From: a virus
Taxonomy: Duplodnaviria > Caudoviricetes
Length of the DNA stretch: 64,000 nucleotides
Virus record (IMG/VR): IMGVR_UViG_3300028563_000020
Span: 2,143 to 66,142 of that record
Reading direction: 5' to 3' (one strand)
Made by a program: the position numbers and the translations under genes. Within the stretch, counting starts at the first letter, position 1; each line of letters opens with the position of its first letter. Positions 11,719 through 59,764 of this stretch are shown here, one piece after another. The notes beneath the pieces are model-generated. The model made no database searches and was not told the origin of the DNA. It saw nothing but the letters and a program-made list of their open reading frames with translations.

Positions 11719-12948
11719 TTAATATAATTCTCTAAAACTAAATGATCCGAAAGTATTAGCAGCTCCACCAGTAGCTGTTATAACAATACTTAATATTGTT
11801 GGGTTAGCTCCATTAATATCTAATGATAAAGGTTTTCTATTACTAACAGTATTTGTAAATGAATCTCTAAAACCACCTATTGCAGGTATATAACCAGAAT
11901 AAATAATTTCACCACCAGTAACTGTTGTTCCAGCAACATCAAATTCTACAATAGAGTTCGCTCCTACTGAATTCCAAACTGGTGTTCCCCCTAATGCTCC
12001 ATTATAAACAATTTCATAAAAAATAGTTGCATCAGGAAATATGTTATATGATTCAGGTCTAATTAAACCTCTGTTAACAATGCTATTAAATGTTGCTTTA
12101 GGTCTAATACTCAATATTGCTCTTCTTGTTGTAACTGAAATTGATGTTGTTGCATTATTTGCTGTATGTACTAGTCCATATTCGTCTTTATTACCACCTT
12201 CAGAAGTAACAACAGAACATAATTGTAACATTCTGGTTGGTGTAACTGTTACAGCAGTGTTTTGTAACTCATAGCGTAATGGCAAATTAGCTGTTTGCAT
12301 ATAAACAGTAGTAAGATTATTGGCATTAAACATTTGATGACAATAATAAGTTATACCGTTTATATTAAAACCAAATCTAACTCTACCAACGCCAAGCCAT
12401 TCGAAATCAATAACAAATATTTGTGTTTTGGACATATCTAATAAAATACCTGATTTACCAGTACCATCAAGTCTATCTATATTCCATACTGATTGATTTA
12501 TTGGATTATCAGCTACTGCACCGCTTGTTTTAGTTCTACGAACGACTTTTAGATTAGTACCATCTTGTTCAAAAAATAATCCATTATTAGCATCAAATAG
12601 TCCTAATCTTTGTCTAACATTAGTTTTTTTAGCACCCATTACACCTGTCATTAATACTTGTTGTGATCTTCCAGGTTGATATCTATAATATTCAAATGTT
12701 TGACGAATAGCTGTTGAACCAGATGCTGTAGTCCCTGATAATATAACACCACTATCATTTGGTGAATGTGTAATACTACCGCCAATAGATGTTGAACTCT
12801 GCCAATATAATGGATTTAAGCCATATTGGAATACTGTATCTATTAATGTTGTTGGATTTGAAACTCTAACACGCCCAAAAGCATCTGTTCCTGGAGAATC
12901 AGCAAATGTAATATTTTCGGGAGGCGTAGGGGTTGTTTGAATTATCAT
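11719..12948 (-). CDS. phage virion structural protein
   Basis: DAFGRVRVSNP, YRYQPGRSQ, DFEWLGVGRVRFG motifs seen in phage structural proteins. Confidence 0.65.
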   Translation of the reverse strand: MIIQTTPTPPENITFADSPGTDAFGRVRVSNPTTLIDTVFQYGLNPLYWQSSTSIGGSITHSPNDSGVILSGTTASGSTAIRQTFEYYRYQPGRSQQVLMTGVMGAKKTNVRQRLGLFDANNGLFFEQDGTNLKVVRRTKTSGAVADNPINQSVWNIDRLDGTGKSGILLDMSKTQIFVIDFEWLGVGRVRFGFNINGITYYCHQMFNANNLTTVYMQTANLPLRYELQNTAVTVTPTRMLQLCSVVTSEGGNKDEYGLVHTANNATTSISVTTRRAILSIRPKATFNSIVNRGLIRPESYNIFPDATIFYEIVYNGALGGTPVWNSVGANSIVEFDVAGTTVTGGEIIYSGYIPAIGGFRDSFTNTVSNRKPLSLDINGANPTILSIVITATGGAANTFGSFSFRELY

Positions 12949-51447: not shown

Positions 51448-51858
51448 ATGATAGGAGTAAATAAAAGCACGTTTTTGTATTATGAATTAGTTGGACAGAC
51501 TAATAAAATTGTTAATACATGGACTAAGATTGGATTACTAGATGGATTAAGTAAACGTAAAAGTATTAAATGCGCTATTTATCTCGAAGAATGTTTTATT
51601 CATTTAATATCAACTGGAAATAATAATGCAGAAAGAATAAATAATTTTAATGCGATGTTATTTCCAGTTATTCGTAGAGTTATAACTGGAATAAGATTAA
51701 ATATAGATTTTAATATTTTTAGTATGACTCAAGAATTTTTTAGATATTATACAAATAATATATCTAAATTTTATGAAGTACAAAACATGGACGTTGAAGC
51801 TGAACTATGCTCAGATTTTTCAAAATGTTACATCAAAAAATTAAATAAAAATAACTAA
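51448..51858 (+). CDS. major-capsid N-terminal-fragment-like protein
   Basis: WTKIGLLDGL...AIYLE...LFPVIRRV resembles the gp23 N-terminal region (from recall). Confidence 0.55.
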   Translation: MIGVNKSTFLYYELVGQTNKIVNTWTKIGLLDGLSKRKSIKCAIYLEECFIHLISTGNNNAERINNFNAMLFPVIRRVITGIRLNIDFNIFSMTQEFFRYYTNNISKFYEVQNMDVEAELCSDFSKCYIKKLNKNN

Positions 51859-52911: not shown

Positions 52912-53211
52912 ATGGAATTAGTAGATGAAATATATGTTATATTTAATAAATATAAAAATATTAAAAAATCTAATTTATTGAATTTTGAACTATGTCATAA
53001 AATAAATTTAATTAATAATAAGAATTTAATTATTGTTAGTTCGCCAATATTTAGATATAAAGGTATAAATCTATGTGTTAATGAGGATTATTTATCAATG
53101 GAAAAAATAACCAGAGCATTAAAAGAAAATTATCTTGTGTTTTTATATGAAACGGACAAAAACTCTAATAGTTATAGAGGAAATATATATAATAAGAATA
53201 GGTGGAACTAA
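52912..53211 (+). CDS. hypothetical protein
   Basis: 99-aa ORF after TATATTTG (52881-52888). Confidence 0.5.
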   Translation: MELVDEIYVIFNKYKNIKKSNLLNFELCHKINLINNKNLIIVSSPIFRYKGINLCVNEDYLSMEKITRALKENYLVFLYETDKNSNSYRGNIYNKNRWN

Positions 53212-53343
53212 TATATTAAGTATTTTATAAAATTAGAAATAAAAAAATAGTGAAAATTAATAATTTATATGATAAAAGAATCGATTTTTTATATTTAATT
53301 TTGAGTCTATATTATTGTAAATCACAATAATTATTTAGGGTAT

Positions 53344-53907
53344 ATTGTAATTATATAAAATTTAGTATGAAATCACAACAAACGAGTTTTTATTAACTCA
53401 GCAACTAATATTGTAATTATATAAAATTTAGTATGAAATCACAACATTTAAATCTGGATTATTCGATGAGATTAAATTGTAATTATATAAAATTTAGTAT
53501 GAAATCACAACTATATATCAAAGATATCAGGTTAGAATATCATTGTAATTATATAAAATTTAGTATGAAATCACAACTCAGGTTCTGATGATTTTACATT
53601 TTATGTAAATTGTAATTATATAAAATTTAGTATGAAATCACAACAACATGGCTTATCAGTGGCGTGAAAACATTATTGTAATTATATGAAATTTAGCATG
53701 AAATCACAACAGTTTCGTTATTCCCCGCATTCGAATAAGCATTGTAATTATATAAAATTTAGTATGAAATCACAACTCTGCTTTGGAAGGTGTTCCATTT
53801 CCTTTAATTGTAATTATATAAAATTTAATATGAAATCACAATTATTCGGGAGAACTGCCCATTATTTTTTAATTATAATTATGTAAAATCTATATTGAAA
53901 TAAAAAT
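53344..53907. CRISPR. CRISPR array: 8 repeats + 1 degenerate terminal repeat, 8 spacers
   Basis: Repeat ATTGTAATTATATAAAATTTAGTATGAAATCACAAC (36 nt) at 53344, 53410, 53476, 53542, 53609, 53675, 53741, 53807; degenerate copy 53872-53907 (27/36); spacers 30,30,30,31,30,30,30,29 nt. Confidence 0.97.
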
Positions 53908-53913
53908 TATTAT

Positions 53914-53921
53914 TATATTTG
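53914..53921 (+). promoter_or_regulatory. Bacteroidota-type promoter for cas3
   Basis: TATATTTG 18 nt before ATG 53940. Confidence 0.6.
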
Positions 53922-53939
53922 TAAAATAAAAAATGTAAA

Positions 53940-56234
53940 ATGATGAATAAACTTGACGAAATTTTAGCTAAAAGCAATGGATTATCTTTGATAACTCACT
54001 CTAAAGCAGTTGCTAAAATATGTGAATTATTATGTAATAAAATATTGAAACATAATAGTTCTTATGAATTAACAAAAAAATATATTATATTATCTGGATT
54101 ATTACATGATATTGGTAAATGTTGTAAATTTACACAAGACTATTTTAGGTATAATATAAATAAAAAAGATGTTAATATTTTTCATAATGAAATTAGTTGG
54201 GCATTTTTAAATAGTATATCAAATATTCAAAATGAAGAAATATCATATTTTTTAAATAGCGTATATTGGCATCATCCACATAATAATTCGAAAGCATCAA
54301 AAAATTATCAAGATATATTGTATAATGATAATATAAATTATGATGATGATATTAATTTAATGATATCATTATATAATGAGTTAACTGGTGATAATATCGA
54401 TAAATCTAAAATAAATTTAAATAAATCTTATAATAAGACTCCTGATTTTTTTTCAAATCACAAAGATTTAAACACTAATCCTAATTTTAAGAATATTCTT
54501 TACAGAAGTATTTTGATAAGTGCTGATAGAATAGTTTCTTCATTAGAAAATAATAGTGATGTAGAAAAAATTTTAATAAATGATCAATATTGTTTAGATT
54601 TAATTAATTGCGATAAAATAATATATGAAATAAATAAACCTGATGAATATGATAATAAAAGATTTAATAAACAATTAGATTGTTCTATTAAGGCACGTGA
54701 TTATAATACAACTATAATAAATGCAACTGCGGGATTTGGTAAAACATTAATTGGAACATTATGGTCACTTCCTTCAAAAAATAAATTGTTATGGGTTTGT
54801 CCTAGAAATGTTGTTGTAGAAACAGTATATGAGTCGATTATTAAAGAATTAAATGTTTTAAATATTAGTGATATAAGTGTTGAATTATATATTACTGGAG
54901 AAAGAAAAAAGTGTAACAATATTAATATCCCTATTTTTAATTCAGATATAATTGTTACTAATATTGACAACTTTTTAAAGCCATTTATAAGTAACGATGT
55001 TGCAAAAAGGTCATATTTCATACATGATTGTGATGTCGTTTTTGATGAATTTCATGAATTTATTGGCAATGAAGCATTGTTCTCAATGTTTATACAAATA
55101 ATGAATGTTAGAAATAATTTAACTAATTCCAAGACACTTCTTTTAAGTGCTACGCCTAGTAATATTAATTTTCTTTGGGATAATAATATTAATAAAACTT
55201 GTATATTACCAAATAAATATAAACATTATTCAGCGATACATGATAAAAATTATGAAATAAATATTATTAATGAAGATAACATAGTAAAAAATGATGATAC
55301 ATTAATAATAACAAATTCAATATTTAAAGCACAAGAATTAAAAAAATTTTTAGACATTGATTTATTAGTTCATTCTAAATTTCAAGAAAAAGATAAAATA
55401 GAAAAGATAGAAAAACTGAATAACTTATATGGTAAATCAAATAGAGATCAAATTAATAGATCTCCCGTTGTTGCAGCTCCTATTATCCAAGCAAGCATGG
55501 ATATATCATTCCCTTATTTAATTGAGTCATGTTGTTCGCCTGAAACAACATTACAAAGAATCGGAAGATGTAATAGATGGGGTAATTATAATAATTCTTG
55601 TATTAATATTATTAATTTATATAATAATAGGAGTGAACAAATGTCAATTAAAAACTTCTATGATATAAATTTAAGTAAATTATGGTTTAATTTTATTAGC
55701 AAAAAAATAAAAATATATAATAATGAAATTACTTTAGATGAATTATATATATTATATAATGAATTTCATGTAAATTATGAGACTGAAATAATTTCTTTTA
55801 TTAAGAATAAGTATAACAAGAGTTTAGAAAAATTAGAAAATGTATTCCCAAGTAGGAATATTAAAACATTACAAGAAGAACAAAATTATAATAATATTCC
55901 TAAAAATGGTTTAAGAAATAGTAAAGATAGTTATTATTGTATATATAAGTTTAATTCTAATAATGAATTTACTGAACCATTTTTAGAAAATGTTATGGAT
56001 TCTATAGATCGAGATCTAAAAGAAGATAGTAAAACATTAAGTAAAATAAAAAAAGTCATACCTAGGTTAATTGAATGTGGCTATAAGTATTCCAAATATA
56101 AACAATATTTGAAAAATTTAACATTGAGTAAATTATATGAAAAATCATATAGTAATGAAACGCCATATATTGCTTTTAATAAGGAATATTCTAAAGAATA
56201 TGGATTAGCAAAAAAAGAAATTTATGAAAATTAG
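53940..56234 (+). CDS. cas3: CRISPR-associated helicase/nuclease Cas3 (HD + SF2), no Cas2 fusion
   Basis: THS, LLHDIGK, HNEIS, YWHH, SADR; ATAGFGKT, DEFH, SAT, HSKF, QRIGRCNR. Confidence 0.95.
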   Translation: MMNKLDEILAKSNGLSLITHSKAVAKICELLCNKILKHNSSYELTKKYIILSGLLHDIGKCCKFTQDYFRYNINKKDVNIFHNEISWAFLNSISNIQNEEISYFLNSVYWHHPHNNSKASKNYQDILYNDNINYDDDINLMISLYNELTGDNIDKSKINLNKSYNKTPDFFSNHKDLNTNPNFKNILYRSILISADRIVSSLENNSDVEKILINDQYCLDLINCDKIIYEINKPDEYDNKRFNKQLDCSIKARDYNTTIINATAGFGKTLIGTLWSLPSKNKLLWVCPRNVVVETVYESIIKELNVLNISDISVELYITGERKKCNNINIPIFNSDIIVTNIDNFLKPFISNDVAKRSYFIHDCDVVFDEFHEFIGNEALFSMFIQIMNVRNNLTNSKTLLLSATPSNINFLWDNNINKTCILPNKYKHYSAIHDKNYEINIINEDNIVKNDDTLIITNSIFKAQELKKFLDIDLLVHSKFQEKDKIEKIEKLNNLYGKSNRDQINRSPVVAAPIIQASMDISFPYLIESCCSPETTLQRIGRCNRWGNYNNSCINIINLYNNRSEQMSIKNFYDINLSKLWFNFISKKIKIYNNEITLDELYILYNEFHVNYETEIISFIKNKYNKSLEKLENVFPSRNIKTLQEEQNYNNIPKNGLRNSKDSYYCIYKFNSNNEFTEPFLENVMDSIDRDLKEDSKTLSKIKKVIPRLIECGYKYSKYKQYLKNLTLSKLYEKSYSNETPYIAFNKEYSKEYGLAKKEIYEN

Positions 56235-56293
56235 TATTTTATTTAAAAATTTTTTATATATTTGTTGTATTAATAACTAAAAATAATTTTAAA

Positions 56294-57361
56294 ATGAAGA
56301 AAGTAAAAAATGTAATGTTTAGGATTACGATCAAAGGTAATGGAATTGTTAATTATGATAGCGGAGAACAGAAAAATGTATGGAAAGAATTCAAAAATAA
56401 AAAAGAGTTTGATAAAAAGAATGATAATTATATCTTTGCTAAGAAAAACTATTATTCATCTAGTGATGGTGAGCTTGAGTATAAGACAAAAATATCAAGT
56501 GATTGCCTTCGTCACAATATATTTATTGATGATATTCCATTTCAATCACCAAATATTGCTAGTGTTCCTGAATTATTATTACAATTTATAGCATCCCCCG
56601 CAGCTCTTACAAGAGGATATTTCTTTGGTGTAAGAGGAGATTCTTCAATAAAAAGATCAACTAAACTCGATATTATTGACGCAGAACAAACAAATAATGC
56701 AATTAGTGATTTAGAATTTTTTTCTAGAAGTGGAGAAAAAAATGACACTTCCATTTTCAATAAAGAAACAATAGGAAATGTTGAATATAAAACAAATGGT
56801 AGTATTGATTTGGAAGAATTACAATTTTGTTCTTGCGATGAAAAATTTGATAGATATAGTTTTAATCCAGATTTATTTCCGCAATATAAAAAAATATTAC
56901 AAACAAAACTTAAATCTTTTAATAGCGAATTAGGGTTTTATAAAATAAAAGGTACTTGTATTGATATTTCAGAATATGGTTTTAAATTATCTAATGACGA
57001 TATGTTAAGTTTAATTAAATATTTATTTATAAAAATATTAAAATTAAATATAAAACGTTCTAAAGCATTTGCTAAAACAGATTCTTTAGAATATAAATTA
57101 GTTTATGATCCATTTGAAGATAAATTGAATGATAATGAAGGGTGGATTACTATTAATAATTTGGATGATATTAATAATATTAACTTTGAAATTGAGGATC
57201 ATTATATTAAAACAGATACAGAAGATTCTTTGGCAATAAGAAAAACATTAGATGATAAGGCTAAAGAAAAAAAAGAGATTAAGGATAAGGAAAATAAAGA
57301 AAAAAGGGAGTATATAGAAAAAAAGAAATTAGAAAGAGAAGAAAAATCTAAAAATATATAA
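56294..57361 (+). CDS. cas7: Cas7 backbone subunit, Cas7fv (type I-F2)-like
   Basis: GNGIVNY, ISSDCLRHNIF, ASPAALTRGY, SGEKNDTSIFNKETIG, GSIDLEELQF, DEKFDR are collinear with my recollection of Shewanella Cas7fv. Confidence 0.8.
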   Translation: MKKVKNVMFRITIKGNGIVNYDSGEQKNVWKEFKNKKEFDKKNDNYIFAKKNYYSSSDGELEYKTKISSDCLRHNIFIDDIPFQSPNIASVPELLLQFIASPAALTRGYFFGVRGDSSIKRSTKLDIIDAEQTNNAISDLEFFSRSGEKNDTSIFNKETIGNVEYKTNGSIDLEELQFCSCDEKFDRYSFNPDLFPQYKKILQTKLKSFNSELGFYKIKGTCIDISEYGFKLSNDDMLSLIKYLFIKILKLNIKRSKAFAKTDSLEYKLVYDPFEDKLNDNEGWITINNLDDINNINFEIEDHYIKTDTEDSLAIRKTLDDKAKEKKEIKDKENKEKREYIEKKKLEREEKSKNI

Positions 57362-57363
57362 TT

Positions 57364-58266
57364 ATGATATATTATCTTTTTTTAGATTTTAAAAATGCTG
57401 GATGGTTTAACAGTAATGAAAATACTAAAGACTATGTTTATAATATAAATGGAAAAAGTAAAAGAATTAATACAAAAAAATATGTTGAACCAATAACTGT
57501 ATTTCAAATAAGTAACATGCTTCATGTATTATTAGGAGAAAGGCCAAAGCCATCATTACGAAAAACTGATGATAATTATATTAAAGAAATAGATATAATT
57601 AAAAATTTTGCACTTAATGGATGGATTAAAATAAATCCATATACATATTATGATAATAAATTTGAGAAGACAAGTATTTTATCTGAAAAATTGAAAACAA
57701 AAAAGTGTCAATGGGATAGTACGAATAAACAATGCTCAATTTATTGGAAAAAAATTGAACAATATCTAGAAAATTCATTATATGATGAATATATTGGAAT
57801 ACTTAAACAAACATTAAATATCAAAAATGTATATCAATATACAGTTGTTGAATGTTTGGATTTAATTTCTAAAATCTCTAATTCATTGATAGATGATTTT
57901 AAAATTAAATTAAAGAAATATAATAAAACAGATATGATTAATTTTATCGAAAAGGGTTCAAAAACGAAACATAAGTTGAATGATAATCCAAGAACTAGAT
58001 TAACATATATTGGTGGAATTACTGATATTACAAGATTGTCGGGAAAAATTATTATTCCTATTGATATGTGGGGTATTAATAAAATAAGAAATTCTAAAGG
58101 CTATGCTAGATTATTAGATGGTGGTCTTGTAACTATCGAAAATTTAATTGCTGAAGATATGTTCTATGATTCAATATTAAATGAATATACACCAATTAAA
58201 AATATTTCCACTGAATTAATTAATATTAAACTTAATAATGTAACTGAAGATGAGAATAAAAATTAA
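57364..58266 (+). CDS. cas5: Cas5, Cas5fv-like
   Basis: Between cas7 and cas6; ITVFQISNMLHVLLGERP helix, ITRLSGKIIIPID, C-terminal LLDGGLV loop; 300 aa. Confidence 0.65.
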   Translation: MIYYLFLDFKNAGWFNSNENTKDYVYNINGKSKRINTKKYVEPITVFQISNMLHVLLGERPKPSLRKTDDNYIKEIDIIKNFALNGWIKINPYTYYDNKFEKTSILSEKLKTKKCQWDSTNKQCSIYWKKIEQYLENSLYDEYIGILKQTLNIKNVYQYTVVECLDLISKISNSLIDDFKIKLKKYNKTDMINFIEKGSKTKHKLNDNPRTRLTYIGGITDITRLSGKIIIPIDMWGINKIRNSKGYARLLDGGLVTIENLIAEDMFYDSILNEYTPIKNISTELINIKLNNVTEDENKN

Positions 58267-58969
58267 TTTTACAAAGAATATTACGCCTGTTAAGAATAAT
58301 AATTTGCCTGATATTATGTATTATATTCATACTAAATGTTTAGGTAAAAATAATAAATATCATGGTTCTAAAAATAAAGATTATTCAATATCACAATTAT
58401 ATGGTGGTAAATTGGATATTGTTAATAATGTTCTTAATTTTAATAATGGTAGTTATATTATTATTAGTTCACAAAATGAGGAATTCTTAAGAAATATTAT
58501 TAAAAATATATACAATGAAAATTGTAATGAATTATTTAATGGTATGATGTTTGATAAAATTGATTATGTTTTTGAAGATTTTTATAATGGATGGAATTAT
58601 TTTTCTACATTATCACCTTTTATTATAAAGAAAAGAGGGGAAATTAAAGAAGGCGAAAGTAAATTTTATACATTAAATGATAATAATTTTAGCGAAATTG
58701 TTACAGAACATACAAAAAATAAATTATCTAAGATTAATAGCAATTTGAAATTAAATGATTTTAAGATAACTATTAATAATCATCCTAAACATAAAGTCAA
58801 AAAAGTTGAATATAATAATATTAAAAATCAAGCTAATCAATGTCAAATAAATATTTTTTGTAACAAAAATGTTGCAGAATTAATATATAATTTAGGTATT
58901 GGTCAATCAACTGGATGTGGCTTTGGCACAATCTATAAAACAGAAAATCATTCTAAATATAGAATATAA
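58250..58969 (+). CDS. cas6: Cas6 endoribonuclease (I-B/III-like rather than Csy4)
   Basis: YSISQL, TLSPFII, C-terminal G-rich loop LGIGQSTGCGFG. Confidence 0.9.
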   Translation: MRIKINFTKNITPVKNNNLPDIMYYIHTKCLGKNNKYHGSKNKDYSISQLYGGKLDIVNNVLNFNNGSYIIISSQNEEFLRNIIKNIYNENCNELFNGMMFDKIDYVFEDFYNGWNYFSTLSPFIIKKRGEIKEGESKFYTLNDNNFSEIVTEHTKNKLSKINSNLKLNDFKITINNHPKHKVKKVEYNNIKNQANQCQINIFCNKNVAELIYNLGIGQSTGCGFGTIYKTENHSKYRI

Positions 58970-59001
58970 TATATTCATTAAAATATTCTATTTTAGAAAG
59001 G

Positions 59002-59102
59002 GTCTATAATTATATAAAATTTATGTTAAATCTAAACGTTGTCGGTGGTGCTGCTAATAGTATTTGTCTATAATTATATAAAATTTAGTATGAAATCATA
59101 TT
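59002..59102. CRISPR. degenerate mini-array (2 repeats, 1 spacer)
   Basis: GTCTATAATTATATAAAATTTA at 59002 and 59066; the second copy matches repeat positions 5-32 exactly; spacer GTTGTCGGTGGTGCTGCTAATAGTATTT. Confidence 0.8.
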
Positions 59103-59263
59103 TAAACTTATAGAATCTATATTATTTTTTAGATTTTATAGGTTTTTTTATTTTAAATCTATAAATATTAAAAATATGTTTTCATTATTTATAGATTTTT
59201 CCATATTTTAAACTATTTATATTTGTAATATAAAAATAATAAATATTAATTAAATTAAAAATT

Positions 59264-59764
59264 ATGCTAATATCGATTAAAAAATTTGCTGAAATATGTG
59301 GAGTAACAGTAGAAACAATTAGAAATTGGGAAAAAGAAGGTAAAATAACCTCCCAAAGAACCCAAGGTGGACACAGAAGATTTGAATTAGAAGATGTTTT
59401 TAAGATAAATGATTTTGATGAAAAAATTATAAAAAGATGGGAAAACACAGAATTATTGAATGATGTTGAAGATAATAAAAAAATTAAAACAGTTAAGTAT
59501 TTTGAAGAATGTCTTAAAATAATAACAAATGAAAATTTTGAATTAATATTAGGAATGCATTCTTTTGATCATAGAATATTTTTTGTTCTTAAAAAAATAA
59601 TTGTAGAATCAGATATTAATTTTAATGTGCTTGATTTAATATTTAGTTATATAGATTATTCGAAATCAAAATTCTATGAATTATTTAAAACACCAAATAT
59701 TGATTTTGATAAAGAATTAGTAAATGGTTTTGTTGAATATTATAAACCTATTATAAATATTTAA
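59264..59764 (+). CDS. MerR-type HTH fused to capsid-N-terminal-like domain
   Basis: ISIKKFAEICGVTVETIRNWEKEGKI...RTQGGHRRF; then KRWENTELLNDV, similar to 51448..51858. Confidence 0.65.
   Translation: MLISIKKFAEICGVTVETIRNWEKEGKITSQRTQGGHRRFELEDVFKINDFDEKIIKRWENTELLNDVEDNKKIKTVKYFEECLKIITNENFELILGMHSFDHRIFFVLKKIIVESDINFNVLDLIFSYIDYSKSKFYELFKTPNIDFDKELVNGFVEYYKPIINI

Follow-up and report, generated by a model that had tools for sequence, protein, structure and literature searches.

What is a lone spacer, enclosed by two degenerate repeats and set immediately behind cas6, doing in a phage that carries a longer array elsewhere in the same locus? The question is raised by a one-spacer mini-array of the CRISPR type at 59002-59102 of a 64,000-nucleotide (nt) stretch of Caudoviricetes DNA (IMG/VR record IMGVR_UViG_3300028563_000020, positions 2,143 to 66,142), hereafter the window. 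An initial annotation had read it as a fixed guide, either regulatory or directed against a relative's fibre gene, that Cas6 can process but that can no longer be expanded, and had set against this the scenario of a decayed array remnant. The explanation that we consider best is that the mini-array represents what is left, after collapse, of the canonical array that a phage-borne, Cas1-less, type I-Fv-like family keeps behind cas6, and that it might still serve as a guide; to this full explanation, working guide included, we assign a probability of roughly one half. The mini-array itself is real, and as part of a phage-borne minimal type I system it is nothing out of the ordinary.

A one-spacer array built from the phage's own repeats

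Two variant repeats with one GC-rich spacer between them do lie directly after cas6, as had been described (Table 1). The leader-proximal repeat, R1, begins 32 nt past the cas6 stop codon; its hairpin arms ATTT/AAAT are intact, its loop is altered and its final 8 nt are ATCTAAAC. The first 22 bases of R1 are identical to those of the second repeat, R2, and the remainder of the two differs by one gap and six mismatches. Relative to the consensus of the main array upstream of cas3, about nine changes are found in R1 (five in its 3' half) and about seven in R2. In the 64-kb window, a 16-nt core occurs without mismatch only in R1, R2 and seven repeats of the main array, and with up to two mismatches 19 times, against 8.25 expected. 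Against an nhmmer profile of the eight good main-array repeats, R2 is significant (E 4.5e-7) and R1 by itself is not (E 0.7); R1 is credible as a repeat because of its 22-nt identity to R2 and the CRISPR-like spacing of the unit (64 nt, compared with 66 in the main array).

Degenerate repeats around a spacer-like sequence are thus present inside the cas locus, and at least two direct repeats match the cognate repeat at array-like spacing, as in a CRISPR array. Both repeats fit the phage's own repeat better than that of any relative examined, and the 22-mer common to them is absent from IMG/VR. This supports the reading of the element as an array with a single spacer whose repeats are variants of those of the phage's own CRISPR system, and lends no support to the proposal that it mimics CRISPR RNA (crRNA) as an anti-CRISPR. 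The spacer departs from its surroundings in composition, with a GC content well above the 25% of the contig.

The mini-array is covered, with zero differences, by contigs of three further DNA runs (X2, 58815-59168; X3, 58896-59087; X4, 58922-59225), which shows that the same strain is present in several samples, and not conservation or selection. Runs X2 and X4 also contain contigs of another organism or phage, which part from the window at 58951, shortly before the cas6 stop, and continue into the downstream sequence of one of the related loci described below, L009 (depths 13.3 and 7.6). These L009-like contigs imply that a related CRISPR-Cas carrier co-occurs in the same samples.

Relatives carry a full array at the same site

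A search of IMG/VR with the Cas6 of the window alone returned no relative. Among 545 candidates scored, 219 were Cas6 homologs at E <= 0.001; an alignment of 31 Cas6 homologs led to 24 IMG/VR loci and one GTDB contig, and the closest Cas6 (67% identity) led to six further metagenome loci. The same four genes were found in all of the related loci, in the order cas3-cas7-cas5-cas6-array or cas7-cas5-cas6-array-cas3. A multi-repeat array begins 84-158 nt after cas6, in the plus orientation, in 12 of the 12 relatives whose DNA behind cas6 is readable (lineages L001, L007, L008, L009/L014, L016, L017, L018, L024, L025, L026, L027 and L028-31), and the leader spans 84-158 nt in all ten relatives measured. 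In L019 and L022, the DNA behind cas6 is cut by contig ends. Because every readable relative has a full array at this site and in this orientation, we regard the mini-array as a collapsed canonical array rather than a special insertion. As to origin, then, the scenario of a decayed remnant was correct.

The details of the junction are consistent with this origin. The sequence AAAGGGTCT/AT before R1 equals the leader-repeat junction of L008 over 11 nt; at the corresponding place the main array has TTAGGGTAT/AT. The 32-nt leader is devoid of the motif TTCTTTGACA, which inspection by eye showed in some relatives' leaders and which is absent from the whole window. The repeats of the relatives end in ...GGAATCACAAC and decay increasingly with distance from cas6, often in long tails with 4-9 mismatches. 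What remains in the window would be 32 nt from the two ends of a leader, R1 as first repeat, a single spacer, R2 as a repeat of the terminal type, and the trailing terminator. The simplest history would be the loss of internal units from a normal array together with an internal deletion of the leader, and in a lineage without spacer-adding genes of its own such a loss would stay unrepaired.

This last point is borne out by the distribution of Cas1. No Cas1 was found in the 66,142-base virus record, which is rated ~21% complete and would thus come from a genome of about 300 kb, and none in the three relatives that are complete huge-phage genomes with the module cas3-cas7fv-cas5-cas6-array (L008, L016 and L017, records G406, G407 and G408, of 362, 310 and 597 kb, respectively). 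The whole family looks phage-borne, and its spacers must, it seems, come by some other way. The 25-kb JGI record with the closest Cas6 (L026; protein P0002) has only the cas operon in common with the window phage. By virion protein, the nearest phage relatives are L032-L034; being fragments that include neither cas6 nor repeats, they are uninformative.

No extra repeat unit was detected within ~10 kb in any of the ten relatives scanned, so the mini-array is not conserved there. A repeat remnant upstream of cas3, where the window phage has its main array, was likewise found in none of seven relatives (p 0.37-1). The idea of reciprocal decay, with such a remnant upstream of cas3 in L026, was rejected as not significant (p 0.37). 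No cas pseudogene fragments were found around the CRISPR locus, and neither that search nor the upstream DNA of the seven relatives gave a pointer to a rearrangement that would explain the array upstream of cas3.

One motif of the relatives' leaders may be noted. By eye, and not counted by script, GTTCTTTGACATA recurs in the leader between cas6 and array of L009, L016, L019 and L026, with a variant in L017; it is absent from the whole window. This motif may be an array promoter or an integration signal.

Predicted transcription and processing

A hairpin begins 2 nt after R2 and folds at -14.8 kcal/mol (z -4.65; 0 of 200 shuffles as good), and the stretch from the cas6 stop to R1 folds no better than shuffled sequence (z 0.79). 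As a strong terminator stands right after R2 but none separates cas6 from R1, the mini-array probably forms the 3' end of the cas3-cas7-cas5-cas6 transcript. The hairpin was missed by a consensus terminator scan, which demands three G-C pairs, and a consensus promoter scan was uninformative in such AT-rich DNA (102 promoter-like sites, 89 expected). Rfam gave no match in 53200-59400. A-tract/T-tract hairpins were also seen by eye after cas6 in relatives, but were not above shuffles for L008 (z -1.36) or L026.

On such a transcript, Cas6 would cut in R1 and R2. The crRNA released, with its handle of 8 nt (ATCTAAAC), its 28-nt spacer and the hairpin of R2, would serve the phage's own Cascade-Cas3 as any other guide does, most likely to attack a crAss-like competitor from the same host group. 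Two features argue for retained function: the eight hairpin-arm bases of R1 are unchanged despite six changes in its 20-nt 3' half, for which p would be ~0.02 if the changes were random, and R1 and R2 are identical over their first 22 nt. We predict, at about even odds, that the mini-array is still a working guide.

A candidate target in a crAss-like phage

A scan of IMG/VR with spacer nt 1-17 returned 104 stretches, all of which were examined. Three of them (L197, L179 and L134) match the spacer at 25 of 28 positions, contiguously over nt 1-22 and with mismatches at positions 23, 24 and 28; the records concerned measure 65, 61 and 112 kb, with a completeness rating of 99% for the largest and a GC content of 36%. 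The site falls in frame in a gene of 1098 amino acids and reads VVGGAANKI where the spacer reads VVGGAANSI, the very frame that had been pointed out in the spacer and that proves real. The encoded protein matches Pfam crAss_CARG1 (1.9e-49) and that of the neighbouring gene crAss_CARGO2 (1.3e-45); PHROGs held no match for the target gene. The target protein finds 54 phage records, of which those examined are Crassvirales, and all bacterial hosts named in the tally are Bacteroides. In type I systems every sixth position is unpaired and mismatches distal to the protospacer adjacent motif (PAM) are tolerated, so that only mismatches 23 and 28 would count.

Biological coherence raises our belief in this match. 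A target in a phage of Bacteroidota agrees with the closest cell-labelled cas locus, which is titled 'Bacteroidetes bacterium', and with a mild enrichment in the window of the Bacteroidota-type promoter motif TAnnTTTG, found upstream of 9 of 58 open reading frames (ORFs) where ~3.4 would be expected (calculated from motif density). With this agreement taken into account, we consider the match likely, if far from certain, to be real, which suggests an ordinary spacer against a rival phage. The earlier notion of a fixed guide against a relative's fibre gene is therefore borne out in part: a guide against another phage is plausible, given the 22-nt seed-side match in the frame that had been proposed, but the candidate gene encodes cargo protein 1 and belongs to a crAss-like phage that is unrelated.

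A likeness of the spacer to the phage's own fibre repeats, in contrast, did not hold up, as the best match in the contig (19/28) was reached by 45 of 200 shuffled spacers. Also rejected was, as target, an ortholog of the virion structural protein gene of the window (11719-12948, minus strand): the in-frame match of 19/28 there, with its GGAAN motif, is at chance level, the motif stands at the aligned site in 0 of 120 homologs (a related one occurs elsewhere in a single homolog, P0227), and 80 ortholog loci (515,359 nt) give at most 20/28, none of it at that site. Other searches with the spacer gave nothing beyond chance, namely those of its own window (up to three mismatches), of its k-mers in the contig, of the phages collection (best 19-nt run, E 0.7; partial alignment, E 3), of IMG/VR with N at each sixth base or with the last 19 nt, and of 119 loci (1.08 Mb); at up to three mismatches, it was not found in the 401 genomes searched from the phylum of L025. 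Searches with the main-array spacers found no targets, and the array spacers of L001 and L017 had no match in the phages collection from which a PAM could be derived.

Is the guide still working?

Several points weigh against a working guide aimed at a crAss-like phage. Its transcription is itself predicted from operon layout and terminator fold. The handle of R1 differs at 2 of 8 positions from ATCACAAC, the consensus sequence of 9 of 10 relatives, present in 96 of their 156 repeats; the R1 version occurs in 0 of the 156, and like changes (ATCAAAAC, ATCACAAT) appear in the relatives' decaying tail repeats. Cutting or loading of R1 may therefore have been lost. Shuffled sequence folds at least as well as any of the phage's repeats, and R1 folds at 0 kcal/mol. 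The spacer is 28 nt long, compared with 29-31 nt in the main array. As for the target, the 5' flank of the crAss-like site is GGT and so differs from CC, the PAM of type I-F systems. The 22-nt run is borderline, with an expectation in IMG/VR that we roughly estimate at E ~0.1-0.3, extrapolated from the phages collection (a 19-nt exact run, E 0.7 in 2.3 Gb). The main-array spacers S1-S8 have no match beyond 12 nt in the three phage records, three other crAss-like phages give at most 19/28 at any site, and the Bacteroidota host is only weakly indicated by the promoter motif.

The altered positions in both repeats, the changed handle of R1, its fold at 0 kcal/mol and its insignificance against the profile would also suit a dead fossil, a collapsed canonical array whose R1 is unrecognised by Cas6 or Cas5, which yields no usable crRNA and which has merely not yet been deleted. 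Tails with 4-9 mismatches are common in the relatives, the handle changes mark precisely such tails, and no Cas1 is there for renewal. However, random decay would not readily leave the hairpin arms of R1 untouched, nor keep the 22 bases at the 5' ends of R1 and R2 identical while their 3' parts diverged. Moreover, the unit sits within the operon just ahead of a strong terminator, and an uninterrupted seed-side match to a plausible target speaks for use rather than disuse. We therefore regard the fossil as a serious but doubtful alternative to a collapsed array that still guides. A rather unlikely variant would be a hard-wired, non-expandable guide in the 3' untranslated end of the cas operon, whose altered handle and 28-nt spacer make the phage's own Cascade bind and silence, and not cut, a partly matching gene of a host or rival. 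If this were true, the guide would be delivered by every cas transcript, as a phage crRNA-like regulator that uses phage-encoded Cas proteins.

Related to this is the suggestion of regulation of the CreA/CreR kind, in which Cascade, guided by a crRNA-like RNA (CreR, CreA or crlRNA), would bind without cutting to a partly complementary promoter, located in the host, in the CRISPR locus of a rival or in the ~80% of the phage genome beyond the record. The succession of variant repeat, short spacer, variant repeat and terminator in a cas locus is the layout of known regulatory mini-arrays (10.1101/2023.03.03.530964; 10.1101/2024.10.29.618823). The spacer, at 28 nt against 30 in the phage's main array, recalls the shortened spacers of phage mini-arrays, reported in one of these sources to be 2-3 nt shorter than in the matching host mini-arrays (10.1101/2023.03.03.530964). 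The promoters searched cover the ~21% of the phage genome in the record. Nevertheless, the 66-kb contig holds no perfect match to the 10-position seed; its 12 sites with one mismatch all lie in Gly/Val-rich coding DNA, none of them intergenic in 52.8-59.3 kb, and shuffled spacers average 6.9. Another 12 one-mismatch sites in the cas loci of 15 relatives (255,688 nt) are about what we would expect by chance, so no seed match exceeds chance in either set. According to the part of the literature available to us, known regulatory mini-arrays are defined by a partial, PAM-flanked promoter match and by conservation in related loci, and those with neither conservation nor target were judged degraded repeats (10.1101/2023.03.03.530964), a verdict that would apply here, where neither the mini-array (0 of 10 relatives) nor a remnant upstream of cas3 (0 of 7) is conserved. 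Furthermore, a contiguous 22-nt match to a coding gene resembles an interference spacer and not a partial regulatory match. A regulatory role thus seems improbable to us. Still less credible, and indeed very improbable, is a protein-binding RNA without any guide role, either a Racr-like decoy for the Cas6 or Cascade of a related system or a Cas6 cut site that sets or stabilises the 3' end of the cas mRNA. With R1 so close behind cas6 and no terminator between them, a Cas6 cut would indeed set that end; a cas6 relative of another organism is present in runs X2 and X4, as the loose ends at 58951 reveal; and repeat-mimicking RNA anti-CRISPRs are known (PMC10651486). A decoy, however, would also poison the phage's own cognate Cas6 and Cascade, the repeats fit the phage's own repeat best among those examined, and what they enclose is a bona fide spacer, foreign in composition.

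Comparison with known systems

A collapsed array that still guides has most in common with ordinary arrays that shrink by recombination between repeats: the repeats are cognate and in the orientation of the cas genes, the first is leader-proximal and the terminal one has a degenerate 3' end. It differs from them in that only one spacer is left, the 5' end is altered in both repeats, the leader, shortened to 32 nt, lacks TTCTTTGACA, and an adaptation module is missing. Arrays flanking the cas genes on either side are reportedly found in the type I-F loci of P. aeruginosa PA14 and of the Vibrio phage ICP1, which would resemble the second array across the operon seen here. Virus-borne mini-arrays are said to have been described originally without cas genes and with close relatives as targets, unlike the present case, with a full effector set encoded and an unrelated phage of the crAss-like kind as candidate target. 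The likeness to these elements of inter-virus conflict lies in having one or two spacers on a virus directed against another virus (PMC7099407).

The CRISPR-Cas systems reported from huge phages lack Cas1, Cas2 and Cas4 and have compact arrays, some of them against other phages (PMC7162821). The window phage shares with them its large size, the absence of adaptation genes, small arrays and a likely target in a structural gene of another phage; the available part of that report describes a type I-C variant and class 2 systems, but neither the cas3-cas7fv-cas5-cas6 family nor a one-spacer array behind cas6 (PMC7162821). Regulatory mini-arrays (CreR, CreA, crlRNA) are known from type I-B, I-E, I-F1 and V-A loci (10.1101/2023.03.03.530964; 10.1101/2023.03.10.532045). 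Like them, the present element consists of two degenerate repeats around one short spacer in a cas locus. Unlike them, it has no partial target at a cas or toxin promoter among the sequences searched, is not conserved in related loci, stands after the last cas gene and not by the promoter of an effector gene, and its spacer matches a foreign coding gene over a long contiguous run.

The effector genes come closest to the type I-Fv (I-F2) system of Shewanella putrefaciens CN-32, with which they appear to share a minimal Cascade of Cas7fv-like, Cas5fv-like and Cas6 subunits and the absence of a large or small subunit (PMC4937334). In contrast to what the available part of that source gives for CN-32, Cas6 belongs here to the general family (TIGR01877 / PF01881) and not to Cas6f, Cas3 consists of HD nuclease and helicase domains only and is not fused to Cas2, Cas1 is absent, the repeats are 36 nt and the spacers 30 nt long, and the Cas7fv score (85 bits) is under the curated cut-off of 200 bits. 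The combination of Cas6f, a Cas2-Cas3 fusion and Cas1 by which type I-Fv is recognised was thus not found, and we speak of a type I-Fv-like family.

The mini-array provides a clean example of CRISPR array decay in a phage that is unable to write new spacers: the canonical array behind cas6 is down to one unit, and the working spacers sit in the second array, upstream of cas3. The 22-nt match, if real, would document a conflict of a jumbo-type phage with a crAss-like one, probably for a host among the Bacteroidota, and would give the first protospacer and candidate PAM flank for an uncharacterised minimal type I family. No new mechanism is opened by the finding.

The main array and the phage context

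The features of the locus are collected in Table 1. The product of the cas5fv-like gene has 30-47% identity to that of the gene at the same place in relatives.

Table 1. Features of the CRISPR-Cas locus, in positions of the window
Feature	Position	Strand	Description
Main CRISPR array	53344..53907	+	8 good 36-nt repeats, 8 spacers of 29-31 nt; upstream of cas3
cas3	53940..56234	+	Cas3-like_C_2 7.7e-15; cas3_core 2.3e-25; cas3_HD 9.6e-15
cas7fv-like backbone subunit	56294..57361	+	NCBIfam Cas7fv E 5.1e-24; 85 bits, below curated 200-bit cut-off
cas5fv-like subunit	57364..58266	+	Named by position and conservation in relatives; no family hit
cas6 endoribonuclease	58250..58969	+	Cas_Cas6_C 1.7e-13; TIGR01877 1e-19, above cut-off
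Leader, shortened, 32 nt	58970..59001	+	Final bases AAAGGGTCT
Variant repeat R1, leader-proximal	59002..59037	+	GTCTAT + AATTATATAAAATTTA + TGTTAAATCTAAAC
Single spacer, 28 nt	59038..59065	+	GC 43%; nt 1-22 identical to crAss-like cargo-protein-1 gene
Variant repeat R2, terminal-repeat type	59066..59102	+	Equals consensus at positions 6-33; last 4 positions degenerate
Intrinsic-terminator-like element	59104..59154	+	16-bp hairpin 59104-59145, then U-rich tail

The main array has the repeat consensus ATTGTAATTATATAAAATTTAGTATGAAATCACAAC and ends in a degenerate terminal repeat (53872-53907). Its spacers (53380-53871) fall into two blocks of GC content, 23-27% in the leader-proximal S1-S4 and 34-43% in the older S5-S8, which suggests that the target pool changed over time; the spacer of the mini-array, at 43%, resembles the older block. 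On the minus strand, each main-array repeat (53350-53841) contains a promoter-like TTGTGA-17-TATAAT that matches at 10 of 12 positions. Such matches are near the shuffle expectation in AT-rich DNA, and the orientation of the relatives' arrays favours plus-strand transcription. Just 32 nt (53908-53939), without a convincing hairpin (z -1.46), separate the end of the main array from cas3, and the main array may be transcribed as one unit with the cas genes and the mini-array.

Left of the main array, the sequence at 53305-53328 had been taken for a further repeat remnant. The sequence does exist, but as a repeat it is not supported (nhmmer E 13); the sole hint is that three of the five plus-strand copies of GTCTATA in the window lie at repeat-like elements. 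A small inverted repeat, ATTGT...ACAAT, is formed by the same stretch, which may be no more than a part of the leader.

Downstream of the CRISPR locus follow baseplate and other phage genes. A gene with a MerR-type helix-turn-helix lies right after the locus (59264-59764), and the C-terminal part of its product (residues 54-160) is paralogous to a small ORF across the locus (51448-51858; 32% identity, E 2.5e-9). The motif TATTTATA stands 5-80 nt upstream of 14 of the 58 ORFs of at least 100 amino acids, where ~1.7 would be expected (calculated from motif density); its distribution fits the candidate late promoter of the initial annotation, and one copy, at 59214, precedes the MerR-like gene.

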